Source: Nemertoderma westbladi (taxonomy: Eukaryota; Animalia; Xenacoelomorpha). From it: a stretch of DNA of 64,000 nt. Positions 1,893 to 40,377 of the stretch are shown here, one piece after another; the first letter of the stretch is position 1, and each line of letters opens with the position of its first letter. Made by a program: the position numbers and the translations under genes. The notes under the pieces were generated by a model. It was not told the DNA's origin. It worked only from the letters and a program-made list of their open reading frames with translations, and did no database searches. The stretch lies in NCBI GenBank assembly GCA_032718475.1, contig JAUCBJ010001668.1, positions 1-64,000 of the forward strand, written 5' to 3'.

Positions 1893-2960
1893 GCCCTACA
1901 CTGCTACAGTGGTGGGCTAGCAGCTAGATAAATTTAATTATTACCATAGAACTGTCATTCGGATCTGTCAATCCGTGGATAAGCCGCCTACCGCAGTCTG
2001 AACATTTCAGCATTTACTGATTTACTGTATACGGCCGTGTACTACCGGTACTGTGTATCTAGGTATCAGGTACCTACCGGCCACACAGTATCCAAATCTA
2101 GTCCTTGATCCAAAATACAGCAATTAATTCTGCAATTCAGGAATTAATTTACAACATACATACGACGACAAAACGCTCTGCTACCATTGTCAAAATAATT
2201 AATTCCAACTCTTTACTAATAACTTCTGACTGTATAACAGTATACTCCAGCAATATGACCAAATACAAACCACACACAAAAGACCGAATAACCGTACCTG
2301 TACGGACAACCTCCACCAAAATATATCATACACAGAATATATATTAGGCCATGCCTTATAACCTTTGACACAACTCAAGTCACACCGATCAGCTGACTGC
2401 CATTAGCTGATAAATGAATGCATGCAACGTCTATAAGTCCAGTTGCTCTTTAGTTTGCTACTCCTGTACGTACCTATCTGTAAGGTTTTTTACTTAACTT
2501 GGTTTAGGAATTAAAATTAAACAGCATATCCTTTTAACACGTGTTAACTTCCGAATTAGTTGTTAGGAGCTTCAGGGCTACAATGTTGGTCCAGTTCTAA
2601 AACTGACAGGACCATAGGCAGAGTTAAGAAAAAATGAGAGGGCCGGATTTCAAAATGCCCCGATCGAGACAATTTAATCCAAAAAATATCAATTTGTTTT
2701 GTGTCCCTGGTGTAATATTTTTTCAAAATTTAAAATTTTAGGATGGCTAAAAATTAAATTACAAAAAACAAATATACATCACTAATAACTGTAATATTAA
2801 AGTAATGAAAAGTAAATAACTATACAATAGAAGTAGTAGTTTTCTTATATACAATTGCTGCATATAAATAATAAGGGAAAGTTATATAATGTAAATTTAT
2901 TATCGAAGGCAATAGTAATATGATAGACATAGAAAGTAATAATAAAACAATTAATATTAA

Positions 2961-4715: not shown

Positions 4716-5322
4716 GCTGGTTGCGAAGAATAGACGAAGGGAATAGAATAATTGTAATTCTAAGAGGAATATAATTTTCTTTTCTTTTTTGGAATAATTA
4801 AGTGGTGGTACTGGATAGTGCTGAAATCCGATAAACTATTGAATTTTGTGGTATCTTAGTTTTAAGTCTTAAGTTAATAAGTAGATTGCGTTTGTAATTA
4901 ACAGCAGAATTTAAATTTATTATTTTGGTACTGAATTATAAAATTCAGTAAAATTTTATTTTTATATTTAATTTTCTTTTCAGTGATACGTTTGATACGT
5001 TTGCAGTTGTTAGTGAAACATCAATGCAATATGAAAAATTCTTCTGCGGTGAGCTTATGGGGGTCGGTTCCATTATTACAATCAATGAACCCACATATTG
5101 TGGAACCAACATAACCCATCGATAACCATAAATGATAAAGTGAAGGTGGTCATGTACCCACCAGACCTGCGCGGCCTACATAATAATGATTAGAAAGTTG
5201 CTAAACATTATAATATACTTTCCAAGTTTATCCCTGGCTACATAAATTGTTGAGTATTATGCATAATAAAGCTTAATTAATATAATGTTTTATATTTATA
5301 GATCAATATGGTTTATCTTTAT

Positions 5323-5833
5323 GGTGTGGGGCAGTATGTCGTAGAAACTACTACGAGAGGGTATGCCCCTGCTATCATGGGTTACACCCTATGTGGTGTG
5401 GGGCAGTATGTCGTAGAAACTACTATGAGAGGGTATGTCCCTGCTATCATGGGTTACACCCTATGTGGTGTGGGGCAGTATGTCATAGAAACTACTACAA
5501 GAGGGTATGCCCCTGCTATCATGGGTTACACCCTATGTGGTGTGGGGCAGTATGTCGTAGAAACTACTACGAGAGGGTATGCCCCTGCTATCATGGGTTA
5601 CACCCTATCTGGTGTGGGGCAGTATGTCGTAGAAACTACTACGAGAGGGTATGCCCCTGCTATCATGGGTTACACCCTATGTGGTGTGGGGCAGTATGTC
5701 GTAGAAACTACTACGAGAGGGTATGCCCCTGCTATCATGGGTTACACCCTATCTGGTGTGGGGCAGTATGTCGTAGAAACTACTACGAGAGGGTATGCCC
5801 CTGCTATCATGGGTTACACCCTATGTGGTGTGT
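5323..5833. repeat. 72-bp tandem repeat, about 7 copies
   Basis: Unit GGTGTGGGGCAGTATGTCGTAGAAACTACTACGAGAGGGTATGCCCCTGCTATCATGGGTTACACCCTATGT; yields 24-aa repeat ORFs; only 2 copies in the paralogous region (about 14228-14378). Confidence 0.95.
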
Positions 5834-8800
5834 AAAGGCATTATATAATATAATCCGGTTATATATGTATATTATTTACAGAGCAGTCGATTGAGGTTAA
5901 AAAGGATAGATCTGAAGGAGGAAAACCAATGTAAAATAAAAAAGCTTATGGAAAACTTAATGAAAATGTTAAAGTAGCTGGGCAGATTCATTAATTGATG
6001 TGTGCAAATTTAGCTAATTTATTGTTCGATTCCACTCACAATAAAAAATAAAATCGTCTGCATATTGAAATAAATATTTTCTAATTTTAAATATTCCATT
6101 GTGAAGGCGCTGCTGGCTTTTCGATAAAATGGTGCCGACACAACTTCCTATCACATCGGTCTGATAGATGTTAGGACAATTGAGACCCGGACAATTGTGA
6201 CTCCGAAATTTGCGACTCAGACAATTGCGACCCGGTAAATTGCGAGTCATGATTTTATAAAAAATTGATGATTCGTAATATGGAGCCTTCCCACACATTT
6301 TTCTACAAATTTTAATGAATTTGCATGGAATTTGAAATAGGGCTAGTTTCGCCTCCCCTACCTATGAAAGATCTTTTTACAGAACACAAGCGAAAACAGT
6401 GGAATAGAAAGAGCAGGTTCTCTGTTAGGAACCTTTTATGACATATAACATTAGGGATCTCTGGCCATGTGTTAACCATCTTTAACTCTAGTTTTAATTT
6501 ATTCCAGGTCTGATCTGATAAGAAATGAATATTTAATATCGCGACAATTTAATTCTATAATTACTTATAGAAATGTAACAATTGACTAATTTTATGTAAA
6601 CGTAGGTACCCTGTGTTATTTTTTTGTTGTCATTGTGTTTTGGACTTTGAGTGTTTTTGGAGGTTCTTCGGATGTGTTTGACGGTGATCGAATGTGTTCG
6701 GTCATGTTTGTCTTTAAGTACCTTCCCTAATAATGAATTAATTTATATTTTAGACAACAATAAAATCAACTCATCGTGGGGTCTATGGTTATTACAACCG
6801 ATGCCCATGTTTTTCATCGCAAATAACGAAGGACATTCGTTGAGTAATTCAAACTGATGTTCTTCTCGAAAATGTTCCAGTAAACACAGAGGGAAAATCA
6901 ATCCGGCAGGGTGTTTTTCACTCCAGTCGATTTACCTCGCTTTTCTTGGGACAGGGAGCAATGAACGTTTGTTAATTATAATATTTAATTTTATTACATA
7001 ATTTAAAACCTTAAATAAAATATGATACAATGTAATTAAACATAAACATAGATAAATAAAATAATTTTTTATTTCGTAGGTCCAAGAAAAAGCTCAGCCA
7101 TACAATACAGCTCACCCCTTCTGCCTATCTGGCTTCTGCGGCTGCATGTGCTGAACTTACTGGCTGTCTTTTCACCGCCACTGCGCCTACTCCATCTCGA
7201 AACACCTTAACTGATCACTTAACTGATTATTATCTTTCTTTCAATGAAATGCACACTGCAGAAATGTACATGGAATAGTTTTTAGTATCCAAGGCCCTGC
7301 CAGGCCGAGACTTACAATTCATTTTTTTTAACCTAACAGGATAAAATAAAATTTTCAAAATTATCTGTTTTTCTTTTCTTTTATATTCACTTTTCTAGAG
7401 CATGTTATAACAGGGTTTAAATATAGACTGCTCCTGGTAGCAGTTAGGTGAAGATAATGTATGTAAGGGCGGAGGTCTGGTTTAAGTGGTTTAAGTTACA
7501 ATAATATAAATTCGGCATCTTGCCACCTTCATGAGTATGGTTGTAAATTATAAAGAATTAATATTGCGGCAAATTGCCACATTTCGGGTTGTTACGGAAA
7601 CGGTTCATATTATGTTTTTCCTTACGTGATAAATTAATTTTAATTCTTTTTTTTATTTAGTCCAAAACTCAGACATTAACAAATCACCAAGTGCGGCAAC
7701 ATGTCAATCAATAAATACAACAATACAATGGACAATGGAATGTGGTTGGATGGTCCAAATCGAGCAGTTTTGGAGCAGATAAAGAAGGGGGGACAATGTT
7801 TGACTCCTCAAAATTGCACATAACGTCTGTTCGACCCATTGGACAGTATCAGTTTCAGCTTCTCGAAGGTAAGCTATTTAATTAAAAATAGTTTAATAAT
7901 TTCTGTTAATGATAACGATCATTAGCACTTTGAGTATCAAAAACAGTATGATGGACCAATATAAATTTGGTTATTATATTATAAACAATCTAGTCCTATG
8001 AAAAAATTTATAATTTATAATAAATATGTAATATATTTCGCTATTTAAGAAAACTTTTAGTGAAAATTAAAAATTATATATGTAAAAGTTGAAGAGTATC
8101 ATATACTTAGTCCAATGGGAAATAATTTATTTTTTTCATTAATTTTAATTAGCCAATCAAGTCCTTACCGATAGATATGTACAGCAGTAGCGAAACTGCA
8201 CCGATATATGTTGGATGCAATCAGTGATCAGCTAACGGCAGTCAGCTGAACGGTAGGTCTCACCTCACAGTGAAAGGCATTATGAAGAGTCCAATCCTGG
8301 AAATGACCGTGAGGGTGAAGTCCGAAATGGGAGAAGGAAAGGGAGCGTTACATAATGAAGATTGTGTGTAATATTAACTAACCAATATGGGAAGCAGCAA
8401 CACAAACTTGGGAGGCGAAACCTACCGATCAGCTGACTGCCATTAGCTGATAAATGAATGCATGCAACGTCTATAAGTCCAGTTGCTCTTTAGTTTGCTA
8501 CTCCTGTACATACCTCTCTGTAAGGTTTTTTACTTAACTTGGTTTAGGAATTAAAATTAAACAGCATATCCTTTTAACACGTGTTAACTTCCGAATTAGT
8601 TGTTAGGAGCTTCAGGGCTACACTGTTGGTCCAGTTCTAAAACTGACAGGACTATGGTGGCCCATGAGTATCATAACAAAAAAATATATTTATATATTTT
8701 TAAATGAAATAAAAAAACTCATTTTAAAATGCATATGAAAAAAAATTCAAACAAAAAATAAAATGCAATTTAAAATGTATTTTAAAGTCGATTTCAAAAC

Positions 8801-9460
8801 GATTTTTAAAAGGCATTTTAAAACGCATTCACGACACGCAGCCCATAGAGTATCATAACAGACTGTCGTAATGGTAGCTGGCCCGGGAGTATCATATCGA
8901 ACTGGCAGAGGATAGGCCTAACATGCGCATGCGCGCGCATGCGCATACGGCAGGCTACCTAGTTCCCTTGCTGCCAGCTGTAGAGTACCGGTAGTGCACT
9001 ACTGTTGAACTGCACTAGACAGAATCAGAACAGCAGAAGTCAGCTAGTGCAGTAGTGGTATCGGTTCTGCGGTTGTGGCACTTGTGGCAAGGCCCTAGGC
9101 GTACCGGTACCTGTAACTGAATAAGCTCTTTGCTTTGAGTATGCTGAGCGTAGAAAAGCACTATAACTAACTGTATAAGACTATGGCAGTTCGCAGTATG
9201 GCTATATAAATACAGAAATACCCTATATAGGCTATTATTAGCCTATAGCACTGTAGCAGTATAGGGCTGTAGGGTGACCAGTGACCACTGATAGATTGCA
9301 GGTACCGGTCACCGGTACGTCTGTACGTTGTTTGACTTTGTGCCAATGCTGTTATCTGTTCTGCTGTTATTCAGAAACTGCTACCGGTAGTAAACCGCAT
9401 ACATTGAAATTTCATTATTATATTTATATTGGACGACATCGATTGCCTCGCTATACTGCT

Positions 9461-10667
9461 ATGCCACCACGAACAGAATGGAAGGATGACAAGATTCTTA
9501 AAGCGGCTTTGGCTTGGTATGTAAAGAAAAACTACAAAAAAAACGGAGATTCTTAACTACATGGAACGCGATTTTGATGAATATGCATGGAGTTTGGCCA
9601 CATTAAGTCGCCGCATGAAGCATTTTGAAATTAGGTATATAGATGACTGTGATCCGCAGATCGTTATGGCTGCTATAGTTAGTGAGTTAGACGGCCCTTC
9701 TCAGAAACTTGGATATAGAGGAATGCATCAAGTTCTCCGTGATAAACATAACTTAAAAGTTCCACGTAGCCTAGTTTCGGACATACTACGAGACGTTGAT
9801 CCAAGAGGTACTGAAGAACGGACACCCAGGTTTAAAGATAAACGTGTGAGAAGTCTATTTGAAAGTGGTGGTTCTTTTCAGACGCTGAGTATAGACGGCC
9901 ACGACAAATTATGTGGATACCAAAACAGTACATTTCCCCTGGGGGTCTTTGCGTTTTTAGATACTTATTCTAGAAAAGTACTTAAAATCAATGTTTTATT
10001 CTCCAACTCACAGCCTTTAGCTATCGCCTCACTATATTATGATTTACTTACTGAAATAAAGTGTATGCCAGTGTTCATTAGGTGCGATAGAGGTACCGAG
10101 ATGGGTAAGCTAGCTACATTGCATTCATACCTTATAGATCAACAAGATATTATGGATGACCCAACAGAAGCTATAATATTTGGGCCTTCCACGACCAATA
10201 AAATTGAACGATGGTGGAGGGATCTTCACGAACGCATGGTAATGTATTATAAGGATCAACTTACAGATCTGTTAGTTACGAATCAATACGATCCACATAA
10301 CGCAAATGACAGGCTTGTTATGGCCTACGTTTACATACCCATTGTGCAGAAGGATTGCGATATGTTCGTGTCAAACTGGAACTCACATAGAATTCGAGCA
10401 CAGAAGATAGGATTACCAACGGGAATTCCAAATCATATGTTTGATTTTCCCGAAACATACGGTGGCCAGAAATACTCGCTCGATTTTGATTTACATGACT
10501 TGCAACTGGTTGCAGAGCAACTAGGTATCACTGACTATAGTAAGACCCGTATTATGGACTGTGAGGTTATAAGAAAGTGCACTCAGATATTGCCAGAACC
10601 CGCTAATATTAAGAGTTGTGATGCTAAGGAAGTCTTCATTTATCTTAAAGAAAAAATTAAAGAATAG
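9461..10667 (+). CDS. IS3EU DDE (integrase-like) transposase; +1 frameshift in A8 run at about 9536-9543
   Basis: MPPRTEW..YKK joins ..EILNYMERDF if one A is removed. Motifs LGYRGM, SIDGHDKL, RCDRGTE, KIERWWRD, WNSHRIR, GIPNHMF. Confidence 0.85.
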
Positions 10668-11213
10668 TTAAAAGAGAAACATATATATTTATTATAATTA
10701 TAAGGCTATAGAGGGAGGGATGTAACAGATTGGGCATTTATTTTCATTGGCAATCCGGACGGCTAGTACGTAAATTGTATTAACAGTTAACACGTTATTT
10801 TCAATGATAATCCAGATTGCTGAATACCCTATTGGAATCATGGATTTTCAAGGTAATTATTAAATTTCAACTAAACTACTACAACTAACAACTAAAAAAG
10901 TTAAAACTTAAAGCGAACACTAAAACTAAAAAAACCAACAAAAAAAAAACAGTAAAACCAAAAATGTATAAGTTTCGCTGTATGGAATAGAACGTAGGTG
11001 AGTTACCCCGGTATTAATTTCATTGCAATTTAGATAATTTACCAAACCAGATATTAGTATTATTCAATGTTAGTAACCCTAGCACAAACCCAAACTAGCT
11101 GCCGGCTAAAATGTATGAAAAACTAAAGAACTTATGCTAAAATAAAAAAGCAAGTTATAGTTATAAGCAAGTTCTATTGCATGAGTCACATGACGAATGA
11201 TATGATAGGCCTA

Positions 11214-12524
11214 CTAAGTGTTTTCATGGAGGTGCATAATTTTGCAATAACGGTTGCATTTATGGGATAGGAGGAAGTTTTCAATACCGATCACTGAGCA
11301 ATTCCCTGTGCAAAAGTATATCTCTTGGTCGTCATACGTTAGTTCTCTACTGGCGATCTCAGGGTCATACAATCGCAGATCTGTGCCCTGAATATCTAAT
11401 AGCATTATCTTCTTCTTCGTATGTATATATGAGTAATGGGCGAGCGCCTGTGCCTTATCATAGTTATCCAGCTTGTAATTGCTGAGGTCTTGGTCACTCG
11501 TATCTGTTACTGTGCCGCAGTTGTTTATGTATTTAATAAATGTGCCAGGTACATGCTCCTCTACTGTAATAAATTCCATCTCAGATGAATCCATCACCCC
11601 AAACCAAACCTTATTGTAGACGAAAGTTTCTCCAAAATCTTCGTCGAAATTACTCACACACTTCGAGAATGAATCAGTGATTGTAGAAGCAACGGTATGC
11701 ATTTGTACCTGTTTTCGAGTGTGATATTCGACGGTTGTTCCCAGTTCCTCAGTTAACATTGCTTCCACACTGGGTTTGCATTTTTTCACAACAAACTTTT
11801 CATTGCCATCGCAATTGTAGGCCATATGGGCAGATCTAAACCCACCCTCCGCAAAAGGTACTTTGGACACCTTGTATCTGCCGGCTTTCTCTATATTCCA
11901 AGTGGAGTGCTCAATATCAAATTCTTCACGACATATAGTGACAGCAATGTATTTATCATCTACTATAACTTTACCTGCCTTTATTAAGCATGACACTGAT
12001 ACAGATTTTGGATAAATCTTCGGACTCTCAACTGCCCGTGAAGAAATTGGTTCTAAATCCTGCAGTGCGGTACTCACTTTACCACCTGCAGCAGCATCAC
12101 TACCGGGCGTGGTAGGTTGGCTACTAGTACTAGGTCTACTACTACCACCAGTAAACCTGACAAAGTAAATCTTCTTACATCCCAATTGTTCGATGTCAGA
12201 GCAGCTTGGGCCCCTCTCACTAGCCAAAACATCACAACTTCCCTCGGGTTCACCATAGTATGCCTCACAGGCAGTCTTTATGTTAGTGATGCGTAGGTCC
12301 TCATAGTCAGCTTGGAAAGGTACAAAGTGGCGAGGCCCAATCGGTTCGTATTTAGATAGTCTACCTCCAGAGTGTTCAGATAATTTTTGTACAGTTAGCC
12401 ATTGCGGGGATTTGAGTCTACCGGTAGCACCTTGTTGCACTCTCTTCGTGCGTTTCGCTGACAGTCTCGCCTCCAAATTGCCGATGTTTGTTTTTCTTCC
12501 TTTCTGTCCCGCAACTCCTGCCAT
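11214..12524 (-). CDS. Alpha-kinase (eEF2K/MHCK/TRPM7-type atypical kinase) cargo
   Basis: Intact intronless ORF with PFAEGGFRSA, VVKK, TVEEHVPGTFIKYINN, AQALAHYSY, LLDIQG, LYDPEIAS, GNCS..GI..F, and zinc motif HKCNRYC. Confidence 0.92.
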   Translation of the reverse strand: MAGVAGQKGRKTNIGNLEARLSAKRTKRVQQGATGRLKSPQWLTVQKLSEHSGGRLSKYEPIGPRHFVPFQADYEDLRITNIKTACEAYYGEPEGSCDVLASERGPSCSDIEQLGCKKIYFVRFTGGSSRPSTSSQPTTPGSDAAAGGKVSTALQDLEPISSRAVESPKIYPKSVSVSCLIKAGKVIVDDKYIAVTICREEFDIEHSTWNIEKAGRYKVSKVPFAEGGFRSAHMAYNCDGNEKFVVKKCKPSVEAMLTEELGTTVEYHTRKQVQMHTVASTITDSFSKCVSNFDEDFGETFVYNKVWFGVMDSSEMEFITVEEHVPGTFIKYINNCGTVTDTSDQDLSNYKLDNYDKAQALAHYSYIHTKKKIMLLDIQGTDLRLYDPEIASRELTYDDQEIYFCTGNCSVIGIENFLLSHKCNRYCKIMHLHENT

Positions 12525-15351
12525 ATCCAAGACATACGCATAGGCCTATATACACAGTGCAATACTGAAATATATCTCAGTCCAGGATTTTTAGTAGGGC
12601 CTATGCTATGCTATGCAGTAGGGGTATGCCTCCTATCAGCTTATAGGCCTATCTCTGTATGTGTTAAGTTCAGATATTGCAGTATTGCCTAACTTCATTG
12701 AACTTATATCCTACGGTATTACTATATTGCCTGTTTAGTAGGCCTACCCGTCAGCCCGTACCCGCGTAGCGTATCCAGTATGTGAGTATCGTTACCGTTA
12801 CACGTGCACTCACATTTCCTTCTCATAGATTTCCTTTTCATTTCTTTCTCATAGAGCAGTAGAGGAAGTCTACAAATGCGAACTGTACAACTACCGGTAC
12901 TCTACACCTTCAGGTCACAGAAATGAACGAGTCATACTGCCTGACTGCTGTACCGTACCAGTAGTCAAGTTCCAGTACTGTATCACAGTAACAGTAGGCA
13001 TCGGATGTTAGGCCTTGCTGACTTCTGCTGTAGTGCAGTACAACAGTAGTGCACTACCGGTACTCTACAGCTAGCAGCAAGGGAACTAGGTAGGTAGCCT
13101 GCCATATGGGCATGGGCATGTTAGGCCTATCCTCAGCCAGTTCAATATGTGAATGCGTTTTAAAATGCCTTTTAAAAATCGTTTTGAAATCGACTTTAAA
13201 ATCCATTTTAAATTGCATTTTATTTTTTATTTGAATTTTTTTTCATATGCATTTTAAAATTAGTTTTTTTATTTATATTTTTTTGTTATGATACTCATGG
13301 GCCCCCATACAGGACCATAGGCAGAGTTAAGAAAAAATGAGAGGGCCGGATTTCAAAATGCCCTGATCGAGACAATTTAATCCAAAAAATATCAATTTAT
13401 TTTGTGTCCCTGGTGTAATATTTTTTGAAAATTTAAAATTTTAGGATGGCTAAAAATTAAATTACAAAAAACAAATATATATAACTAATAACTGTAATAT
13501 TAAAGTAATGAAAAGTAAATAACTATACAATAGAAGTAGTAGTTTTCTTATATACAATTGCTGCATATAAATAATAAGGGAAAGTTATATAATGTAAATT
13601 TATTATCGATGGCAATAGTAATATGATAGAGATAGAAAGTAATAATAAAAAAATTAATATTAAAATTTAACCAATTTTTATTTGTCTCATAGTCATAGTC
13701 ATAGTCATAGTCTCATAGTCGCTGCCCCCATCGGCGTCCCCGTCGCCGCCCCCGTCACTGCCCCCGTCGGTGTCGCCCCCGTCGCCGCCCCCATCGGCGT
13801 CGCCCCCATCGTCGCCCCCGTCGGCGCAGCTGCCGACTGGCTGGTTGCGAAGAATAGGCGAAGGGAATAGAATAATTGTAATTGTAAGAGGACTATAATT
13901 TTCTTTTCTTTTTTGGAATAATTAAGTGGTGGTACTGGATAGTACTGAAATCCAATAAACTATTGAATTTTGCGGTATCTTAGTTTTAAGTCTTAAGTTA
14001 ATAAGTAGATTGCGTTTGTAATTAACAGCAGAATTTAAATTTATTATTCTGGTACTGAATTATCAAATTCAGTAAAATTTTATTTTTATATTTAATTTTC
14101 GTTTCAGTGATACGTTTGATACGTTTGCAGTTAGTTGTTAGTGAAACACCAATGCAATATGAATGATTCTTCTGCGGTGAGCTTATATAATGTTTTATAT
14201 TTATAGATTAATATGGTTTATCTTTGTGGTGTGGGGCAGTATGTCGTAGAAACTACTACGAGAGGGTATGCCCCTGCTATAATGGGTTACACCCTATGTG
14301 GTGTGGGGCAGTATGTCGTAGAAAGTACTACGAGAGGGTATGCCCCTGCTATCATGGGTTATACCCTATGTGGTGTGTAAAGGCATGATATAATATATAC
14401 GATTGCCAGAAGTGATGGATTTGGAGGGGCAGAGAATAGCCCCACACTTCTTCTCAAACATCGATTTCAGTCTGTTGTTATTCAACAAAGCAGATATAAT
14501 TGGATAGAAATAAATAATACAAATTACTGATAGATATCTCAATTACTGTATGTAATTCATATTCATTTTCATAAAATATTGATACATTTTATGGTTCACT
14601 TTAATTCAGAGGCCATGATTCAGGGCTTTTTTTTTAATATTTTCATTTACATGGGATAAGATCTATAATGTTTAAAGTTTAAATTGAAACTTGTATAGGA
14701 AAAGCAATTCAACATTGCTTTGTCAGAGGTGCGGCGGTACGTGAAGTGTGATCTCCAGCGATATGGGAATCGCCATTGGATTCTCTTTGGTTGGGTGAAG
14801 AGTCAGATGCTCCTCCAGGTGTGGGGGCAGATGCAGCACCAGCACATTAAAGGGACTCAGTTGGCTTCTTTCGACTCATTTTGATTTAGTTTGTTTTGAT
14901 ATACTGTTATAACAATGTAAGAGCAGATTTAGTTTCGTTCATTTTGTTCTACTGTACTTTATTGGTTTTGCTTTATCTGTTATGTAATTTCTTATATAAT
15001 ATTTAATTCTAATATTATGTAGATTTTATTCACCCTCACGTAACTCATTAAATATTCTCGACAAGTATGACAGATTTGGCTAAACGGTTTTCATATTTGG
15101 AATCTGGAATCTGCTCTAGATAAAATAGAAAAAACATTTTGAAAAAAGAATTGAAAGCCACCCACTTAAATTAAATCATGAAATAGTGTTTATAGTTGTT
15201 TTAAGGGCTCCTGAAATATTTCCTTTTGTATTTTTAAGGGCCCCTGCTAATTAATATGGCATTTTGAAACCGTCATTGCAATGAAATGAAATGTCATTGC
15301 TAGGTACCCAGTTTAAAACCAATCAGGAAATAGTGATTCTCGTTGTTTTAA

Positions 15352-21559: not shown

Positions 21560-21874
21560 AGTAGTATAGGATGCTAGCCCCTCCGCACAAAGTCACCCGT
21601 AGCCCATCATTACCATCCATTTCTGGTACTGCAGCCAATCAGAAGCCACCATTTCAACCTTTTGCAGTGGTCGTTATTATTTCAACCAATCAGATGTCAG
21701 CATTTCATCCATAACCATGGTAACTTCTCAAGTTCCCGCATCTTCCGCTAGAGGCGTTATTAGTCACCCAACGCTAGTACTGCATCCAATCACCAACCTT
21801 TATTTTACAGGTGTTCGAGTGTCTACACTTAGCATCAGGTAACTTCTATTATTTTTCAAATCGCTATTTTTCAC
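21560..21874 (+). repeat. Polinton left TIR (315 bp)
   Basis: Reverse complement of 40063-40377 with 2 mismatches by eye; contains several CCAATCA boxes. Confidence 0.95.
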
Positions 21875-22455
21875 CAACCATTCCATATTCATCTTCACAT
21901 AGCCTAACCTCACGATGCATGGCTAGCCCCCATCCCATCGCTACTCAATCCACAGCTGTTACCCACCCAACCACCCACCAACCAACCAATCAACGGCGAT
22001 GTTTGCCTAACCCTACAGTTATTCACCTTTTCACAACGTTACCACCACTGCCACGTTACCACCACCACTGTATACTGTATATGGTGACGACGTGGCCACC
22101 AACTACACGCATCGTGCATATATTATATCGATTGCCAAATCCACGACTGCTCTCGCCAAATCAACAAACCAACTAGTATGATACATGAGATTCCGTCACG
22201 TTCTAGCTACGCGTATACGAGTATTAGTGATCATTATTACGCAATAATTTTTTTGTTTATACAGTAGTTCCCTACCAGCTAATCAACCAATCAATAAACC
22301 GAATTTAGGCTATTTCTCAGTTTAAGACCTGTATTATTTTTGAAAATATCTTATATATATAATCTCTTGCTTTAATCGCAATTAATCATTTGTAATGGTT
22401 TTAGTTTAAAAGTTTTTACTTTGTTTGTTTGATTTACAATAAAATAAATTAAATA

Positions 22456-22902
22456 ATGTCTTCTGATTCCAATATGGTTATGCCAATGGTAAGGCATTCA
22501 TTTTTTGCAGAAGATGGTCAAGCCTATATTGTTATTGATTATACAATTTACCGTCAGGGAGATGATAAATATAAAATTGAATTTTCTGAAAAAGCCAGGA
22601 AAGTTTTAAGCTCAATTGATATTGATGCTTCTGATAATAGTATTCATCTTTTAGATTACAACCTGAAAGCTGAGCATGGGGGAGGAAAATTAAGCAACAT
22701 TTTACTATTATCCATGATAGAGGGATTTATTGTTATTACACAATACAACGAAGCTGGTGAAAAGTTTGAAATACGGCTAAATCGGCATAGCCCCTACGAA
22801 ATTATGTCTTTCTTTATTGTAATGATTTCAAAAGAATCCTTTGTCGAACCTGAAGAATCAGCGGATAATGTTGAATATGTTGATAATATCATTGATTCTT
22901 GA
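22456..22902 (+). CDS. Polinton hypothetical protein with acidic C-terminal tail
   Basis: Intact 148-aa ORF with a TATA-like run about 100 bp upstream; no recognised family. Confidence 0.6.
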   Translation: MSSDSNMVMPMVRHSFFAEDGQAYIVIDYTIYRQGDDKYKIEFSEKARKVLSSIDIDASDNSIHLLDYNLKAEHGGGKLSNILLLSMIEGFIVITQYNEAGEKFEIRLNRHSPYEIMSFFIVMISKESFVEPEESADNVEYVDNIIDS

Positions 22903-23071
22903 CTTTTCCCTCTATATTATAAATATTTTATGATTATATATAAAATTTTGTTGTTTTTAAATAATCGAAAATTGTAGTAGTATTTGTATATACAGTATAA
23001 CAGTTTTGTTTGTTTGTTGTTGTTGTTGTGTATTGTGGTAATTATTTTCAATTTACTTTAAAATTTGGAAA

Positions 23072-23527
23072 ATGGATATTTTAAATGAAAAATGTCCAGT
23101 TTGCTATTCTAAGTTATTGCAACAACATCGAGATTATTATAAATGTGAAAATAAACATGCAACTTGCGTACAATGTATTGTACAATATTCCAAAATGAAT
23201 AATTATTGTTCTAAAATTTGTCCTATTTGTCGCGCATCCATATCTAAGTTTAATATAAAGTTGGCAAGATACCAACCCTATTATTGGAAAGAGCTTCGCA
23301 ATATAACTTATATTTCTGCGAAGAAAAGTAATGATCCTGGAGATTTATTTACAATATTGGAGAATATTTTTTATAGAAACGTAGTACGACGCTGTTGCTA
23401 CTATATTCCTTATTTTATTAGCAGCGAACATAAAAAAATCATTAGCGCGAAATTCTCGGGAAGTGATTTCCAAACCGCCGATGTTACCTATCATTATTTC
23501 GCGTATAAAGATGCTCACCATGCTTGA
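23072..23527 (+). CDS. RING-finger (C3HC4) protein, putative E3 ligase
   Basis: CPVC...CENKHATCVQC...CPICR. Confidence 0.8.
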   Translation: MDILNEKCPVCYSKLLQQHRDYYKCENKHATCVQCIVQYSKMNNYCSKICPICRASISKFNIKLARYQPYYWKELRNITYISAKKSNDPGDLFTILENIFYRNVVRRCCYYIPYFISSEHKKIISAKFSGSDFQTADVTYHYFAYKDAHHA

Positions 23528-23740
23528 AATTACATCAGTCTATACTATAATTGGAAATAGCACCTTTTGCTGCAGCGAGCGTCACATACTGTAGTTGTGT
23601 CATATGTTAATTAAATATACAGTACTCTAATATTATTGTAGTTCCAACAATTATTGTTATATACATAGTAATGGTGTTGGTTTATTGATATTGATATTAT
23701 ATTATATTATATTGTTGATATATCTTAATAATAATAATAA

Positions 23741-24421
23741 ATGGCTGACTTTAATTCAGGCCCATATAATTTAAACTTTCAAATGGGTACAAGTATGATA
23801 ATTTCAGGGCCATCTGGTTCCGGAAAGTCAACCTTTGTGGGGAATTTAATTAAACACAAGAATGGTTGTTTCAACGAAGCCCCCTTGCGAGTATTGTATT
23901 GTTACGGGAGCAATCCCCCGACTATTCCTGGTATTACTCACCTTTACAAAGGCTTGCCTGAAAATATAGATAGTTTAGTCAATAGTCGAGATTTATTAAT
24001 TATAGATGATTTGTTAACAGAAACTGAGTCCAGTACAGCTTTAACTGTATTGTTTACTAAGGTGGCTCATCATTCCAATATATTTATTTGTTTTATAACG
24101 CAAAACATGTTTTACGGTGGGAAGCATAACCGCACAAGATCAATTAATAGCCATACTTTAGTATTAATGAAAAATCCGAGAGACAGTCTATCGGTTTTAA
24201 ATTTCGCGAAGCAGATGTTACCAGGGCAGACCAAATTTTTAGTTGATTCCTATCAAGATGCGACAATTCAACCATTTTCACATTTCTTAATTGATTTACG
24301 ACAGGAAACACCCGAACATTTAAGATTTAGATCTGATATATTTCGTAATCATAATTGTTACATTAAAAATTACACTGACTATAAACGTAGCGAAAATAAT
24401 AATAATAATAATGATAAATAA
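23741..24421 (+). CDS. A32/FtsK-like genome packaging ATPase
   Basis: Walker A GPSGSGKS, Walker B LLIIDDL, ITQN, RTRSINS, KNPRD, LIDLRQ..LRFR. Confidence 0.93.
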   Translation: MADFNSGPYNLNFQMGTSMIISGPSGSGKSTFVGNLIKHKNGCFNEAPLRVLYCYGSNPPTIPGITHLYKGLPENIDSLVNSRDLLIIDDLLTETESSTALTVLFTKVAHHSNIFICFITQNMFYGGKHNRTRSINSHTLVLMKNPRDSLSVLNFAKQMLPGQTKFLVDSYQDATIQPFSHFLIDLRQETPEHLRFRSDIFRNHNCYIKNYTDYKRSENNNNNNDK

Positions 24422-24450
24422 TTAATATTTTGTAACAATTAATAGTAACA

Positions 24451-24832
24451 ATGAATAGACTTGTGCAGAAATATCGTAACGAACTGGAATTTCTACGCAG
24501 CGCTACCCCTCAACAAAGAACTTATTTTATTAACCATACCGCCAGTAACGAATTAATACGGCTCATTGTAAATACTGCATTAAATGTTCTAAAAGGTAAT
24601 GTACAATTGACCCCTCATTCATTTAGAAATATTCGCCGCTATAAGAAGGTAGAAATCACTCAACCGTAAAACAAAAAATATATCAAGTTACAGAAAAAAG
24701 TTAAGCAATCAATCTGGAGGCATACTACCGTTTCTAATACCCTTACTCGGCATTGGTGCGAAACTTGCCGCGAGTGCCGGTGCCGCTGCCGCGGGGGCTG
24801 CTATTGCGAAAAAAATTAACCGTGGACGGTAG
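24451..24832 (+). pseudogene. Polinton small virion protein with GG cleavage site and hydrophobic/amphipathic tail; frameshift at about 24650
   Basis: ..ALNVLKGNVQLT.. continues in the +1 frame as KSLNRK..NQSGG|ILPFLIPLLGIGAKLAASAGAAAAGAAIAKKINRGR*. Confidence 0.75.
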
Positions 24833-24838
24833 GTAATA

Positions 24839-25009
24839 ATGGTTAAAACGGGAGTAACATTTAGAAAATTATATTTAGTATCGAGTAAACCGTTAGCTAC
24901 TGATTTAAAACCACAAGATATACCTAGAGTAAATACTACAAAAAGAAAACCCTTTAAAACATCAACTTCGAAGAAAATAATTAAAAAATTTCAGTTGTTC
25001 TTACGGTGA
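24839..25009 (+). CDS. Small basic Polinton ORF (56 aa)
   Basis: MVKTGVTFRKLYLVSSKP..KKFQLFLR*; fills the gap between neighbouring genes; TAATAATG start context. Confidence 0.45.
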   Translation: MVKTGVTFRKLYLVSSKPLATDLKPQDIPRVNTTKRKPFKTSTSKKIIKKFQLFLR

Positions 25010-25060
25010 TGCCCTTTATAAGAGATTTGAATATACATATTACTTGCGGTTGTCGAAAAG

Positions 25061-26151
25061 ATGCCTCGCAAGATGAAACCGATTTTAACCCGAAGCTTAG
25101 ACAAAAAACTGTTAAGAATTTATTTAGATCCTTCATCCCCTGCGGGATTTGCAAGTGTTGCAAAATTAGCAAAAGCTGCAAACATCAAACCGGCGCAAGC
25201 CCAGAAATGGTTGAGCGGACAAAAGACATACACCCTTCACGCTCCACGTAGACAACATTATCCAACATCTAAAATATTTACGGGAGGCATAAAAGATATA
25301 TATATGATAGATCTGGTGGATATGCAGCAATATAAATCGCAAAATAATAATTATAACTATATATTAACGTGCATTGATGCCTTCAGTCGGCTTGCTTTTG
25401 CCTATGCTATGAAAACAAAAAAGGGTGTTGAAATTATTAGTATATTGCAAAAAATATTCCAGAAAGGAAAACCAAACAGAATCGCCACGGATCAAGGTTC
25501 TGAGTTTCTAAATAAATCTGTAAGGAAATATTTAGATACGTAGGTATACAGTATTACGTAATGTATTCTGTGAATAAGGCGGCTATTGTCGAGAGATTCA
25601 ACAGAACCTTAAAAACAAAGATGTTCAAAATTTTCACGCAAAGGGGAAATAATATTTGGATAAAAATTTTACCTAAGCTTATCTCGGCTTATAATAGGTC
25701 GTATCATAGAACAATACAAATGACACCTATTGAAGTTAATAAATTTAATGAAACTGAATTAATGAATAGATTATATGGGAAATATAGACAGATAAATCAC
25801 AAGAAAATAAAATTTAAAGTTGGAGATACAGTACGATTATCTATTGCTCGTACTGCTTTTGCTAAAGGCTATCGAGAACAATGGACACGTGAATTATTTA
25901 TTATTCATCGGGTCAGGTTGGATAGAGTACCAGCGGTAATGTTCGATATTAAGGACAGCACCGGAGCTATAATAAAGGGCTCATTTTATTCTCACGAACT
26001 CCAAAAGGTCCACCCGAATAGTAATATTTATCTAGCAATTGACAAAAAAAATATTGGCAAACTTAAAGAACGTGTACGCAATGGGAAGAAAGAATATTTA
26101 GTCCGATTCATCGGATCCAAGAAACAGTCCTGGGTACAGCATATTCAATAA
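25061..26151 (+). pseudogene. Retroviral-like (rve) integrase with chromodomain-like end; 1-bp frameshift at about 25541
   Basis: YMIDLVDM, CIDAFSR, TDQGSEF, VERFNRTLK, YNRSYHRTI, FKVGDTVR, EYLVRFIG..SWV; the two ORF pieces are in different frames. Confidence 0.93.
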
Positions 26152-26400
26152 GCTTAGGTTTATACTGTATATTAATTCATTTTGGTCGCATATGACCGTA
26201 ATTAATCAATAATATTAACTCGAATGATATTACTATATCTATAGTTCATCCGCTTTAAATAAAGCTAGTAAAATATTGATCCCTCACATATACTGTAGAA
26301 GATGCTGGCAATGAACGTGGTCACAGATGTCTATAATTTAACATTATACTGTATGTACAAAGGAGTCAAGTAGAGAGAGCGAGCTTAAATAATAATAATA

Positions 26401-27273
26401 ATGGCCACAGATACATATATCACTCTACTTTCAGATAGCTCATTGAACACTTATCCCAATAATAATCCTAGTGAGTTTACTGTTGATTTAGCCGAAGAAT
26501 TATATATTGGTCCAAACGCTAAAATTGGACTTGCCGAACTTCAATATCAAGCAACATACAGTAATATTACGCTGCAAACTCAAATCTCACTGTCAATCGG
26601 GGTAGATGCAAAAGATGCCAAATTATATAGTTTATTTCCTGGTATGCATAACTCTATTCAAGTGATTATTGATGATATAAATAAACTGTTTAATTCTGAA
26701 GCGAAATATAGAGATTTCGAATTCATTTTTAATACAAATAATTCTAGAATTAAATTTAAATTTCCTAAAAAGTTGAAAAAAATACAATTAAGTCTACGCG
26801 GCGATTTAATACAAATTCTAGGCTTAAAACCGTTATTGGATCGGAATCATCCGGATATTCCAAATTGGGATATATACAGTACCACTACAGTTGATGAATT
26901 AAGCAATATAGAACAGCCGATATTAATTTTAAATTATAGCGGGCCAAAAATTTCGGAAATTGGCATTTTAGATTTTCCAGCTCCCACGAATATAACACGT
27001 AATAAAGACACTATCTTTATATACACAGATATTATTAAGAGCTCATTTGTTGGCGACGCTTTAGCTCCACTCTTAAGAACCTGCCCTTTAACCCAATTAA
27101 ATCAAAAATATATTAATCACGAATACGAGAGCATTTGCTATTTCCCATTGTTGAATAAAAAACTAAAAACAATCTTAATTACTTTACGTGACGGCCAAGG
27201 CCAATTAATTAACTTCAGCGGAGGTCGCACTGTTATAACACTTAAGTTAATACGGGGTGGCGGCGATGGATGA
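26401..27273 (+). CDS. Minor capsid (penton-like) protein 1
   Basis: YITLLSDSSLNTYPNNNPSEFTVDL, IGLAELQY, IFIYTDIIKSSFVGDALAPLLR, ITLRDGQGQLINF. Confidence 0.85.
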   Translation: MATDTYITLLSDSSLNTYPNNNPSEFTVDLAEELYIGPNAKIGLAELQYQATYSNITLQTQISLSIGVDAKDAKLYSLFPGMHNSIQVIIDDINKLFNSEAKYRDFEFIFNTNNSRIKFKFPKKLKKIQLSLRGDLIQILGLKPLLDRNHPDIPNWDIYSTTTVDELSNIEQPILILNYSGPKISEIGILDFPAPTNITRNKDTIFIYTDIIKSSFVGDALAPLLRTCPLTQLNQKYINHEYESICYFPLLNKKLKTILITLRDGQGQLINFSGGRTVITLKLIRGGGDG

Positions 27274-28111
27274 GTTCTACGTTAGACTACCAAGTAATTC
27301 CTGTCCAATTGATTTTCCCCGCAATAGCGCTAGTAATTATCAGATAAATTTCCACGGCGCCTTACCTATAAATCCAAACGAAAACTGGGTGGTAGGTATA
27401 AAAAGTATATTTTACTTAGCAACGTTGCCGTCCATGTATAACAATGTAGAGAATGTTATTTTATTAAAAAAAGGGAAAAAAATTTTTGAGGATACACTTC
27501 CATCTGGTTTATTCTACAGTATCAATGACATTATAGATTATTTTAACACGGGGGCGTTGAAAGATAAATTACAAATAGTTGAAAATACTCAGCAAAATAG
27601 ATTGCAATTTATTTTAGGGAAAACTGTGCGAGAGTTATTTATAGGTCAACAATTAGCCTATTATTTTGGAATAACTGAAAATAATCTCGGTGCGAATTTA
27701 AATCCAAATTTTAAAATTATTTTGAAGACGAAAAATAATATAAAGGGTTATTTAATAAAGGTTATCGGAAATGGAGAAAAGGCTTACCAGATGGTATTTT
27801 TATGCCCTCAACCACCCAACTCTATTCCAGAACCTAAGTCGAACATGTACGTGACTACTAATATAATTGAAAATCAATATATTAACGATTTTGGTTTAGC
27901 TTTACTTCGTCGTGTTGCGATACCTGATGATGTGAAATATGGTAGCGTAATAAATAAAGAATTTGTCAAGGATACAATTCATTATATCCCTGTAAAAAAA
28001 TCATATAAGATAACATACATTCATATTGAAATAACAGACAAAGAAGGAAAAGATTTGAATTTTGAATACGGCACAACTTCTATTACATTACACTTTAAAC
28101 GTATAAATTAA
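27266..28111 (+). CDS. Minor capsid (penton-like) protein 2
   Basis: MDEFYVRLPSNS..FPRNSASNY, WVVGIKSI, MYVTTNIIENQYI..LLRRV, IEITDKEGKDLNF..ITLHFKR. Confidence 0.85.
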   Translation: MDEFYVRLPSNSCPIDFPRNSASNYQINFHGALPINPNENWVVGIKSIFYLATLPSMYNNVENVILLKKGKKIFEDTLPSGLFYSINDIIDYFNTGALKDKLQIVENTQQNRLQFILGKTVRELFIGQQLAYYFGITENNLGANLNPNFKIILKTKNNIKGYLIKVIGNGEKAYQMVFLCPQPPNSIPEPKSNMYVTTNIIENQYINDFGLALLRRVAIPDDVKYGSVINKEFVKDTIHYIPVKKSYKITYIHIEITDKEGKDLNFEYGTTSITLHFKRIN

Positions 28112-28112
28112 A

Positions 28113-28624
28113 ATGGATTCTGATTTATTTCAAAGATACAGTAAACCTCAATATGGGGGTTCAGACTCTAATCTTGCTGTTTTTAAAGGCGGAAGAAGTA
28201 CCAGAGGCTCGACGCAAGTTCCTGTTTTTCGTGGTGGTTCATATATTGACCCTTACGGTCAACAAATTGGCACATTTGGTCCAAACTTAAAACAACATCG
28301 TTTTCAGCGTTATCGTAGAGGTATGCAGGCAAATCAACACGGAGAGTTTTACGGAGAGTTTTACAGAAAGCTTTACCATTTACCACAAAATTTATGAGAC
28401 AACACGTAATACCAAAAGGTAAGCGGGTCTTACATCAGCAGGCTAATACGGTTATTAATAAAGCATTAAATAAAATGAAACCGTCAACAAGGTCGGTTGT
28501 AGAAAAAGTTTATAGAGATTTAAAGCGACCCGCTAGACCAATGTCTATGAACATACATCATCGACGTAGTAAAAAGAGAAATATAAAAGGCAAACTGAAA
28601 CACTGCGAAAAAAGTATTTTTTAA
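28113..28624 (+). pseudogene. Basic core-like virion protein; frameshift at about 28343
   Basis: QYGG, VFKGG, VFRGG motifs; ..QHG continues in another frame as VLRRVLQKALPFTTKFMRQHVIPKGK.. into the 28394 ORF; Arg/Lys-rich. Confidence 0.65.
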
Positions 28625-28626
28625 TA

Positions 28627-29886
28627 ATGTCAATTATTAAGGAATTAGATTTATTTTCTACACAGCCAATACAGACTGAATTTAAAGCAAAGCATTATGA
28701 AACAATTTACCCCGTATCTAATCTCAGAAGTGAATCTAGGGAGGTCACCTTCCTTGTACCCAGATCCAATGAATTCTATACGAAACTGCAAGACGCGTTA
28801 TTAATTAGAAAATGTACAGTACGTTGGGATAGACGACTTGAAAACTCCCATATTTATATGCTGAATTACCCAGCTGAAACTATATGGAGTGATATTAAAA
28901 TAGACCTTAATGAGAAGCAGGTTGAAAATAGCAATAACCATTATTTCTACAAGTCGTACTTATCCAATTTATTATTTACAACTTAAGAGGATAAAAATGG
29001 GCTACTGGGTGCGGGTGGCTTTCATCAACCTTTATCTGAACACGGAAATGAAATTGATCCCGGCGCGCATCCTATTGCCGATGCCTTTAGTAAACAAATG
29101 CAATTTGTAAGTGGATTGACGATTGATTTTGATACTGAAACTAAAATAATACAACCTGGGTATGATTTAAGAATGCATTTTAGAAAAGTATCAAATTCGT
29201 TTATTTTTAAAATCACTCCAAACGCAAACGCCGTGACAAATCTTCGACTAGAATTAGATGAAATAAAAATTCTAATCCCTAGAATGGAGGTTAATCCAGT
29301 AATAGAAAGCAGTCACCTAAAAGGTTTAGAGAGCTACGATATTGAATATCAATTTCAAAAGAAAGAGGTGACTACATTTACTATTCCCGCTCAAACCACA
29401 AATTACACCCAAACAAACATATTTGATGGTAAAAAACCCAAATTAGTTATTATTGGCTTCATAACAAATAACGCTTATTCGGGAGAATTAATTAGCAATC
29501 CCTTGAAATTTGAACATTTTAACCTTAGACGCGCGGAACTGATTGTAGACGGTCTTCCAGTAGGGGGTGTAATATACGAGCCTAATTTTACAGATGGAAC
29601 ATATATTTTTGAGTATACTCAATTAATGAAAAACATTAATACATATATTAACGGTTATGGAGGTAATAATATAGACCATGAAACCTACTTAGGTAATTGC
29701 CCCCTCCTATCCTGGGACCTAACCGCCGACGGCTACGTTAGAGATCCGCAACCCTCGATATATACTAACGGTCAATTAAAATTAAGATTTGCCGAACCGT
29801 TGGTTGAAACCATAAATGTAATCGTTTTTAATATTTATGATCAATCATTAAGTTTAAATAGGAGGAAAGAAATACATATCGATTAA
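28627..29886 (+). pseudogene. Major capsid protein (double jelly-roll/hexon-like); in-frame TAA at 28984
   Basis: ELDLFSTQPIQT, YFYKSYLSNLL, PKLVIIGFITNNAYSG..NPLKFEHFNL, WDLTAD, LRFAEPL; both ORF halves share a frame (about 419 codons). Confidence 0.9.
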
Positions 29887-29888
29887 GT

Positions 29889-30341
29889 ATGTTATCTACA
29901 GAGGACCTTGATATGTTTCCAGTGGGTGGTCACTATTTGGGCGCGTTTCCAGCTAATAAATTACCTAAATTAGATAATAATAAGCGGCAGGATTATGGCT
30001 TGATAGTAAATACTGATAGAGAGCATCTGCCCGGGATTCATTGGATCGCGATATATATACGAGATAATGAGGCCGAAGTATTTGACTCGTTTGGACCAAA
30101 ATATCCAAACAGATGCATCGAAAAATGGCTTGAGAAAAATTCCGCAAGGTGGCGTACTACACGCAAACAATTTCAAGACCCCAGGAGGACCACATGCGGT
30201 CTATACTGTCTTTATTATTTGGTAAATCGTATTCACACAATCTATCCAATGAGAGCGTTTACAAATAATGTGGAAATCAATGAAATTATATTATATAAAT
30301 GGCTTGTTAATTATTATAAATTAAACCAACAAACTTTGTAA
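29889..30341 (+). CDS. Adenain-like cysteine maturation protease
   Basis: IVNTD..PGIHWIA (His), FDSFG (Asp), QFQ..TTCGLYCLYYL (Cys). Confidence 0.93.
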   Translation: MLSTEDLDMFPVGGHYLGAFPANKLPKLDNNKRQDYGLIVNTDREHLPGIHWIAIYIRDNEAEVFDSFGPKYPNRCIEKWLEKNSARWRTTRKQFQDPRRTTCGLYCLYYLVNRIHTIYPMRAFTNNVEINEIILYKWLVNYYKLNQQTL

Positions 30342-30372
30342 TTAATCATTTAACTTTTGTTTATCAGATAAA

Positions 30373-30972
30373 ATGGATAATATTATTTTTGTTGATTTTC
30401 AATATTATAAGATAGACAATAAGGAGTATCCTGTAGTATTTAAAGAATTTGCTATTTTCGATTCTAATTACACCAAAACTAATGTAAAGACGTTTTTAAT
30501 TAAAGGCCCGTCTAATATTAAGTTATCAGCTTTAGATGCAGCTCACGTAAACAATTTACGGGATATGACTTCTCACTTGCCCTGGGACTACGGGGACATT
30601 TCTCAAGATGACTTTAAAAAATATATGAAGAGACATTTAAAATATAAAAAAAATATTCATGTATTTGGGTTGCTGAAACGGGCAATATTAGTTTCCCAAC
30701 TCGATGTTCACGAGCCAAATTCGGTGGAGAAATTGGGAATATATAAGCAATATCACGATTATTTAACGCCTTGTCGATTTCACGACCGATTCACTACAAT
30801 GGAAAGTAAATGCACGTTCCACTTAAACATAAGGGATAACTGTCTGCGATACTGCTCAGCAAAACGCGTTGGCGGGTATGAGGCTCTACACTTTTTCATG
30901 AGAAAGCGTTTAACTGCGACTGATGATGATGATAAACAGAAAGAAATAACTGCGGTGGAAGATGTACTGTAG
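30373..30972 (+). CDS. DEDD-exonuclease-like Polinton accessory protein (possibly inactive, DxQ)
   Basis: IIFVDFQY..FKEFAI, LPWDYGDI, IHVFG..K, C..H..C; family assignment by motif recall only. Confidence 0.55.
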   Translation: MDNIIFVDFQYYKIDNKEYPVVFKEFAIFDSNYTKTNVKTFLIKGPSNIKLSALDAAHVNNLRDMTSHLPWDYGDISQDDFKKYMKRHLKYKKNIHVFGLLKRAILVSQLDVHEPNSVEKLGIYKQYHDYLTPCRFHDRFTTMESKCTFHLNIRDNCLRYCSAKRVGGYEALHFFMRKRLTATDDDDKQKEITAVEDVL

Positions 30973-31324
30973 GTTTACTCTAAGCATGTAATGTGATGGG
31001 ATAATATAATTTTATTTTAGTGATGATCTTGATGTTAATATAAAAAATATAATAAAATATAATTTTTTACAACAAGTTCTCTAAAAAAGAGTCAATTGCG
31101 CTAGGTTAACTATACACATTTAACAATATGATGTAGACGTAACATGTACAGTAAGTATTCTCGATATCATTCTAATATAGATGTACTGGTATTGTGAAAC
31201 AGCCTATACATCGCAAACTAATAACACATACAGTAGTTGACTAGTAATATTAGTCAGAAAATGCAACATAATCTGTATAGGGTGTAATGATAACCTGTTG
31301 GTACCGGTACTGATAAATTATAGG

Positions 31325-32490: not shown

Positions 32491-32680
32491 CAGTCAGAGC
32501 AGCATCGCTGCCAGCCTCGCAGCCAGCCTCGCGGCACGCAGCAGCCTCGCAGCCAGCCACCCTCGCGGCACGCAGCAGCCTCGCAGCCAGCCACGCAGCC
32601 AGCCTCACGGCGCGCAGCAGCCTCGCAGTTGATCATGCAGTCAGCCAGCCAGCTACGCAGCTAGGCACGCAGTCAGCCCG
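32490..32680. repeat. GCAGCC/CTCGC low-complexity repeat
   Basis: Repeated GCAGCCTCGCAGCCAGCC-like units. Confidence 0.8.
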
Positions 32681-32766
32681 TGAGAGTCATACTTATTCAA
32701 ACGAGGTTAGTTTTCCCTAACTACCGATAGATTGATTGAAAAATAATAATGTTTAATTTTCACCTT

Positions 32767-40183: not shown

Positions 40184-40377
40184 ATCTAGCGGAAGATGCG
40201 GGAACTTGAGAAGTTACCATGGTTACGGATGAAATGCTGACATCTGATTGGTTGAAATAATAACGACCACTGCAAAAGGTTGAAATGGTGGCTTCTGATT
40301 GGCTGCAGTACCAGAAATGGATGGTAATGATGGGCTACGGGTGACTTTGTGCGGAGGGGCTAGCATCCTATACTACT
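40063..40377 (-). repeat. Polinton right TIR
   Basis: Inverted copy of 21560-21874. Confidence 0.95.

Follow-up and report, generated by a model that had tools for sequence, protein, structure and literature searches.

Elements of the IS3EU/GingerRoot group of DNA transposons have TA..TA termini, 6-bp target-site duplications (TSDs) and an integrase-like DDE transposase, are known from fish, corals and other invertebrates (PMC10045372, PMC6839031), and carry 'two proteins', as cited in PMC8232023. In fungi, the TET+ IS3EU families contain a transposase gene and an alpha-kinase gene in opposite orientation, between TAYGG..CCRTA ends and 6-bp TSDs (Kojima 2025, PMC12730594). The pairing of IS3EU with an alpha-kinase is thus already in print for fungi; the accessible text of that paper mentions the kinase briefly, without describing its domains or function. 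Within the literature searched, as far as its accessible text goes, the pairing is stated in this paper alone, although Repbase entries or bioRxiv supplements may describe an animal kinase. Here we describe an animal element of this type, which occupies positions 8653-13309 (4.7 kb) of a 64,000-nucleotide stretch of Nemertoderma westbladi DNA (contig JAUCBJ010001668.1, positions 1-64,000, the whole of which is called the window). The locus is a two-gene IS3EU/GingerRoot DNA transposon that probably inserted recently, and its alpha-kinase is likely to be a standing, co-inherited core second gene that serves the element's own transposition. As an IS3EU copy the locus is unremarkable and slightly damaged; the puzzle is why a cut-and-paste transposon conserves a catalytically intact kinase. 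New here are quantitative data from animals that speak for a core gene, a predicted ubiquitin-like domain in the kinase protein and a likely identity for many 'TRPM6-like' annotations.

The element, its two genes and its insertion site are made up as follows.

8647-8652, plus strand: left TSD, CAGGAC, found only once in the empty site of the paralogous repeat.
8653-9047, plus strand: left terminal inverted repeat (TIR), about 395 bp, starting TATGGTGGCC and containing an AT-rich spacer and short palindromes; the same 10-mer occurs in 24/80 related loci.
8841-8899, plus strand: two further, internal occurrences of the terminal motif, at 8841 and 8881, seen in the left arm and not in the right arm of this copy.
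9461-10667, plus strand: IS3EU-type DDE transposase gene, intronless, with a +1 frameshift in the A-run 9536-9543 (Pfam rva_4, E 4.4e-19; homologues match in two frames).
11214-12524, minus strand: alpha-kinase gene, 436 amino acids (aa), ATG at 12524 and stop at 11214, unbroken and tail-to-tail with the transposase gene.
13005-13309, minus strand: right TIR, about 305 bp; the end reads CCATA, 61 bp are missing and the terminal motif is changed at position 6.
13310-13315, plus strand: right TSD, CAGGAC, matching the left hexamer.
2384-2960, plus strand: paralogue of the target repeat that lacks the element (empty site), with one CAGGAC at 2607-2612.

The left end reads TATGG at 8653 and the right end CCATA at 13309, and the two TIR arms align with 280 of 292 columns matching. 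The repeat at 2384-2960 is taken as the empty site because it matches both flanks of the element (98.3% identity to 8424-8655 on the left and 97.7% to 13309-13663 on the right) and contains CAGGAC only once. A contig from sequencing run X3 that joins 8652 directly to 13317 provides a second element-free junction. The ends, TSD, empty site, TIRs and two facing open reading frames (ORFs) are together far beyond what chance would give, and these hallmarks of IS3EU/GingerRoot are present: TAYGG..CCRTA-type ends, a 6-bp TSD, TIRs, an integrase-like DDE transposase and an alpha-kinase on the opposite strand. A first-pass annotation of the window, made from the letters alone, had proposed these ends, duplications and empty site and had placed the kinase inside the mobile unit, tail-to-tail with the transposase; all of this was borne out, with its coordinates exact. 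The inner motif copies at 8841 and 8881 are likely to be extra, putative transposase-binding sites. The target sequence (8139-8560, 2384-2960) is itself a high-depth, MITE-like repeat (MITE, miniature inverted-repeat transposable element) with imperfect inverted arms (72%), and the IS3EU copy is nested inside it. The duplicated region contains a 72-bp tandem repeat in each of its copies (5245-5904 and 14150-14449).

The rust-fungus elements IS3EU-7_PSt and IS3EU-3_PCor resemble the window element in their ends, 6-bp TSD, TIRs of more than 30 bp and opposed genes (PMC12730594). They differ in host, in length (9.3 kb for one consensus against 4.7 kb) and in having a TET/JBP gene between the two genes, where the window element has none (PMC12730594). 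The animal element is compact, with two intronless genes in 4.7 kb, and its sister copies are near-identical. GingerRoot TIRs are put at 100-150 bp (Kojima and Bao 2023, PMC10045372; Cerbin et al. 2019, PMC6839031), shorter than the roughly 300-400 bp of this element.

The second protein is an alpha-kinase by Pfam family, fold and residues. Its match to the Pfam Alpha_kinase family PF02816, a check that the first-pass annotation had proposed, has E 1.4e-28 and 100.7 bits (cut-off 21.3). Three parts of the protein can be distinguished, the first two of which are taken up further below.

12411-12524, minus strand: basic N-terminal segment, predicted to be helical; Lys and Arg make up 32% of residues here and 13% elsewhere (77 of 84 alignment rows scored).
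12141-12410, minus strand: predicted beta-grasp (ubiquitin-like) domain, aa 39-128; a confident model, matching no Pfam family.
11223-11954, minus strand: alpha-kinase catalytic domain, about aa 191-434; it contains the P-loop, K247, D377, Q379 and D387, and the zinc ligands H363, H421, C423 and C427.

The kinase motifs that had been read from the translation are indeed retained: all 11 catalytic and zinc-binding residues tested are intact in the window protein, and all 11 are kept in 79 of 83 homologues. At the C-terminal position where alpha-kinases have a GXGXXG loop (PMC2827801), the family instead has a conserved variant of its own, FC[AST]GN[L]S, in which the middle Gly alone is retained. 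The AlphaFold model of the whole protein has a mean predicted local distance difference test score (pLDDT) of 85, with a disordered Ser/Thr-rich linker between the N-terminal domain and the kinase domain. The top Foldseek match of the catalytic domain is the TRPM7 kinase (1ia9, E 1.8e-16), and identity in fold alignments is 17-22% to TRPM7, MHCK-A and eEF2K and 13-16% to ALPK1. With these host kinases the window protein shares the fold, the catalytic Lys and Asp and the zinc finger, and in both the catalytic domain follows a linker rich in Ser and Thr. The host proteins differ in having GXGXXG rather than FCxGNxS, in carrying channel, WD40 or calmodulin-binding modules rather than a ubiquitin-like domain, in not being transposon-borne and in their overall identity of 13-27%. 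An orthologue of eEF2K, ALPK1 or TRPM6/7 was considered and ruled out on the missing accessory domains and this low identity. The homologue search returned 218 kinases, the best at about 40% identity, and those with names were from cnidarians and a tunicate; no kinase relative was found in viral contigs among 75 stretches tested.

The catalytic triad of the transposase, D124, D188 and E228 (numbered in ORF 9525-10667), is kept in 50/50, 50/50 and 49/50 homologues, respectively, and the first D lies 100-300 residues from the N-terminus, as the IS3EU/GingerRoot definition asks. A search for its homologues returned 116, and no relative was found among 43 stretches of viral contigs or among 132 stretches of prokaryotic genome contigs.

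How regularly the two genes travel together can be judged from related loci, which were collected by a kinase profile search of metagenome contigs (the best 80 of 269 confirmed stretches). A transposase match is present in 59 of the 80, in every case on the opposite strand and in 58 downstream of the kinase. In the single locus of the other kind, L002 (2-946 and 1000-2256), the transposase lies upstream and head-to-head with the kinase; this may reflect adjacent elements or a rearrangement. Dereplication at 90% nucleotide identity gave 47 clusters, and a tail-to-tail transposase is found in 23 of the 24 clusters with at least 1.5 kb of sequence downstream of the kinase, and in 8 of the 23 with less. 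Incidental capture, which the first-pass annotation had expected to show itself as copies lacking the kinase, is not what these counts point to. The terminal 10-mer TAYGGTGGCC, where present, lies upstream of the kinase in 20 of its 24 loci. Sister loci differ in their flanking hexamers and therefore represent separate insertions. None of the 80 loci has both termini and a TSD, because the contigs are short.

Lack of introns, also put forward for the kinase ORF, holds for the window copy but not as a general trait. Breaks of more than 50 bp interrupt the kinase gene in 6 of 22 related elements and the transposase gene in 17 of 22. Five related kinase genes have a long break just 3' of the ubiquitin-like domain. 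Intron-sized breaks at about aa 249, 285 and 341 are common to the transposases of L013, L015, L018, L021, L027, L028, L053, L054 and L060, whereas the transposases of the window's own clade (the window copy, L059, L074 and L032) have none.

The histories of the two genes run largely in parallel. Kinase and transposase distances are correlated across 22 elements (Mantel r 0.76, p 1e-4), a set from which 7 of 29 elements were dropped for short coverage and in which L038 and L045 are near-duplicates, and seven small clades are common to the two gene trees. The ratio of non-synonymous to synonymous substitution rates (dN/dS) was obtained for 47 pairs, which are not independent and come from short-read contigs of repeats that may be chimeric. 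Among sister copies (8 pairs) it is 0.66-0.93 for the kinase and 0.39-0.99 for the transposase. In the more divergent pairs (dS of about 0.2 or more, again non-independent), the kinase value is at most 0.3 in 23 of 33. Where both genes could be measured, kinase and transposase gave 0.12 against 0.09-0.11, and 0.20-0.25 against 0.13-0.14. Both genes thus drift among sister copies and are mostly purified between subfamilies. According to accepted transposon theory, genes that are selected through transposition should decay neutrally in place and be purified between lineages. The combination of drift among sisters with purification between lineages therefore suggests that selection acts through transposition on both genes, and not through the host on resident copies. 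It is because of the fixed tail-to-tail layout, the co-varying distances and this pattern of drift and purification that the kinase is seen here as belonging to the core of the element and as selected for the element's spread.

The first-pass annotation had instead seen the kinase as cargo able to modulate host defence or translation. On this account, a host gene was captured and kept for the host's benefit, for instance in ALPK1-like immune signalling or eEF2K-like translation control. In other organisms alpha-kinases do have functions of these kinds (PMC2827801), gene capture by IS3EU elements is known, TET/JBP being an example (PMC12730594), and one cluster of loci has a kinase without a nearby transposase. 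However, the near-neutral drift of sister copies argues against host selection on those copies, and the window copy gives a similar value when compared with the majority contigs (pN/pS 0.77, the corresponding ratio of non-synonymous to synonymous differences). The dN/dS comparison that the first-pass annotation had proposed gives near-neutrality among sisters and constraint in most divergent pairs. The position of the kinase is fixed, the gene trees are congruent, identity to TRPM6, eEF2K and ALPK1 is low and no close host donor was found; the search for longer or fused relatives, weak evidence in itself, yielded only 9 channel kinases of the TRPM6 type, all from fish and 24-27% identical. Host cargo is accordingly an improbable explanation of the kinase, and fixed, co-inherited gene describes it better than cargo.

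The N-terminal part of the protein bears on what the kinase may do. Folded alone, aa 39-128 give a pLDDT of 91.8, and almost every top-ranking structural match is to ubiquitin, SUMO, ISG15 or PB1 (best Foldseek E 2.7e-3); the match to ISG15 is moderate, with a Z score of 6.9 and a root-mean-square deviation of 2.6 over 73 residues. Among 32 members of the domain, no Pfam family matches more than one, and querying the ESM Atlas with just this domain yielded no usable match. This predicted, conserved ubiquitin-like domain, outside any Pfam family, is an addition of the present analysis. The basic segment that precedes it resembles a nuclear localisation signal (NLS) in 66 of 77 rows scored, by motif match only, and may serve nuclear localisation or contact with DNA.

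A possible mechanism can be assembled from these parts. The transposase would bind the terminal and inner TIR motifs, cut, and insert with a 6-bp stagger. The kinase would enter the nucleus through its basic N-terminus, its ubiquitin-like domain would recruit a protein substrate, and phosphorylation of this substrate would favour transposition. Precedents exist for two of these steps: cleaved TRPM6/7 kinases phosphorylate histones (PMC13143021), and alpha-kinases dock substrates through extra domains (PMC2827801). If the kinase does serve transposition, the substrate can only be guessed at, with a host chromatin or silencing protein favoured and the transposase complex a less probable candidate.

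The same domains would also suit a kinase that sustains the element selfishly but outside the chemistry of transposition, for example by damping the stress, apoptotic or translational responses of those germ or stem cells in which the element is active. Element-level selection fits such a role equally well, and domains with ubiquitin-like or PB1-like folds commonly serve signalling proteins for docking. Nevertheless, the NLS-like N-terminus suggests nuclear action, and the protein stops at the zinc finger, with no C-terminal targeting domain of the eEF2K type, so that this role seems unlikely, if less so than host cargo. Alternatively, the protein might be a structural partner of the transposase, acting through its ubiquitin-like domain with catalysis secondary. 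Mean conservation is in fact higher in the ubiquitin-like domain (0.59) than in the kinase domain (0.51), yet K331, H363, D377, Q379 and D387 are invariant in 83/83 homologues and K247 is kept in 82/83. A purely structural role would not need such invariance and is very improbable.

Several observations weigh against a core kinase that serves transposition. The deep branches of the kinase and transposase trees differ, and L075 changes place between them. In the remaining 10 of the 33 divergent pairs, kinase dN/dS is 0.36-0.67, and several of these pairs include copies with stop codons. The related loci were ascertained with the kinase as query, so that relatives lacking a kinase would not appear among them. 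The exceptional cluster, L036/L037, extends 2.9 kb downstream of the kinase without a transposase. The structural matches of aa 39-128 have Z scores below 8, and function does not follow from similarity of fold. The literature on related elements is also silent: the word 'kinase' does not occur in the main texts of PMC10045372 and PMC6839031, which cover GingerRoot, a kinase as second gene is not named in the accessible text of these two or of PMC8232023, PMC10853768, PMC11934779 and PMC13343696, and two Styx/REP9 papers, in their accessible text, mention no element-encoded kinase. Some IS3EU relatives may thus transpose without a kinase. L036/L037 has a dN/dS of about 0.7 against L079 and is likely to be a decayed or non-autonomous derivative.

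The linkage of kinase and transposase bears on the naming of invertebrate genes. Cnidarian 'TRPM6-like' genes have been described as kinase-only misannotations (PMC13143021), in a paper whose accessible text does not contain the word 'transposon' (0 occurrences) and makes no link to transposons. Two homologues of the window kinase, P0039 and P0060 (39% identity), carry the 'TRPM6-like' name, and the ESM Atlas places the window kinase in a 'TRPM6-like' cluster (0.98), with a Basidiomycota cluster (0.97) ranked ahead of a chordate TRPM cluster (0.82), values that serve as a lead only. Judging by the related loci, IS3EU elements are the likely source of the cnidarian kinase-only 'TRPM6-like' genes. 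The suggestion in the first-pass annotation that transposition lies behind many kinase-only alpha-kinase genes of invertebrates likewise seems likely to be right. Many invertebrate gene calls of the 'TRPM6-like', 'eEF2K' and 'vwkA-like' kinds are then likely to be transposon genes, which would inflate kinome counts. A broader proposal, tentative and on balance doubtful, is that the IS3EU superfamily depends on its own kinase: a single ancient kinase of animal and fungal elements would dock through its ubiquitin-like domain onto chromatin or silencing proteins and lift silencing by phosphorylation, and most cnidarian and tunicate kinase-only 'TRPM6-like' genes would then be transposon genes. 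An IS3EU origin of the TRPM6/7 kinase was also considered and dropped, as PMC13143021 derives that kinase from an ALPK2/3 ancestor through synteny and shared introns.

The window copy itself shows signs of decay, which the first-pass annotation had missed. Homologues align to the transposase N-terminus, from the ATG at 9461, in one frame and to the remainder in another, and contigs of all 4 sequencing runs compared have one base fewer at 9536; either the transposase is frameshifted in this copy or the assembly carries a homopolymer error at 9536. The right TIR lacks the 61 bp that would hold two inner terminal-motif copies. Contig depth, which bears on whether sister copies carry this 61-bp segment in both arms, is higher over the segment than over the interior in run X1 (about 270 against 139) and run X2 (267 against 165), but lower in run X3 (412 against 474-549). 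With a frameshifted transposase and a shortened right arm, this copy would be decaying and could move only by means of proteins from sister copies.

Comparison with contigs from the sequencing runs also separates the window copy from the majority of its family. The window kinase is shorter than that of the majority contigs by two in-frame deletions, of 54 and 6 bp, and among the differences listed (40 of 191), 5 are synonymous and 14 non-synonymous, which underlies the pN/pS given above. At five well-conserved columns (78, 186, 233, 249 and 406), fewer homologues share the residue of the window copy than that of the majority contigs, and at column 416 the reverse is true. One further segment sets the copy apart.

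12575-12862, no strand assigned: low-depth variant, 288 bp in the window copy, where the majority contigs have 17-22 other letters.

Depth is 139 (X1) and 165 (X2) for interior contigs against 9 and 25 for the variant-specific contig, a contrast that hints at a multi-copy family, although depth is not copy number. The copy is also mosaic relative to the X3 contigs, with 5 differences in 1932 positions in the transposase half (8978-10909) and 24 in 1589 in the kinase half (10953-12574; Fisher p 4e-5). Recombination between copies and chimeric contigs are both possible causes, and a comparable split is seen between L009 and L013.

The window contains several other mobile elements. At about 22400-39000 there is an endogenous Maverick/Polinton-like element with a P-loop ATPase (23741), an rve integrase (25031, E 1.6e-10) and an adenovirus-type protease (29862, E 2.8e-5). 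It also contains, in pieces, ORFs that have no Pfam match and that we take, from their motifs, to be DNA-polymerase-B-like and capsid-like. Inverted repeats at 21560-21874 and 40063-40377 (315 nt, 99%) may be the ends of this element. On the minus strand, 188-1330 encodes a THAP domain (E 3.5e-13) and a weak P-element-type transposase domain and probably runs off the start of the window, and 58072-59451 encodes a Mutator-like transposase in two consecutive ORFs with a stop codon between them (Pfam Mutator, E 3.7e-42 and 4.3e-14). Finally, a foldback- or MITE-like element of about 1.7 kb lies at 48219-49952, its long inverted arms (48576-48864 and 49417-49705, 92%) consisting of 21-bp repeats.

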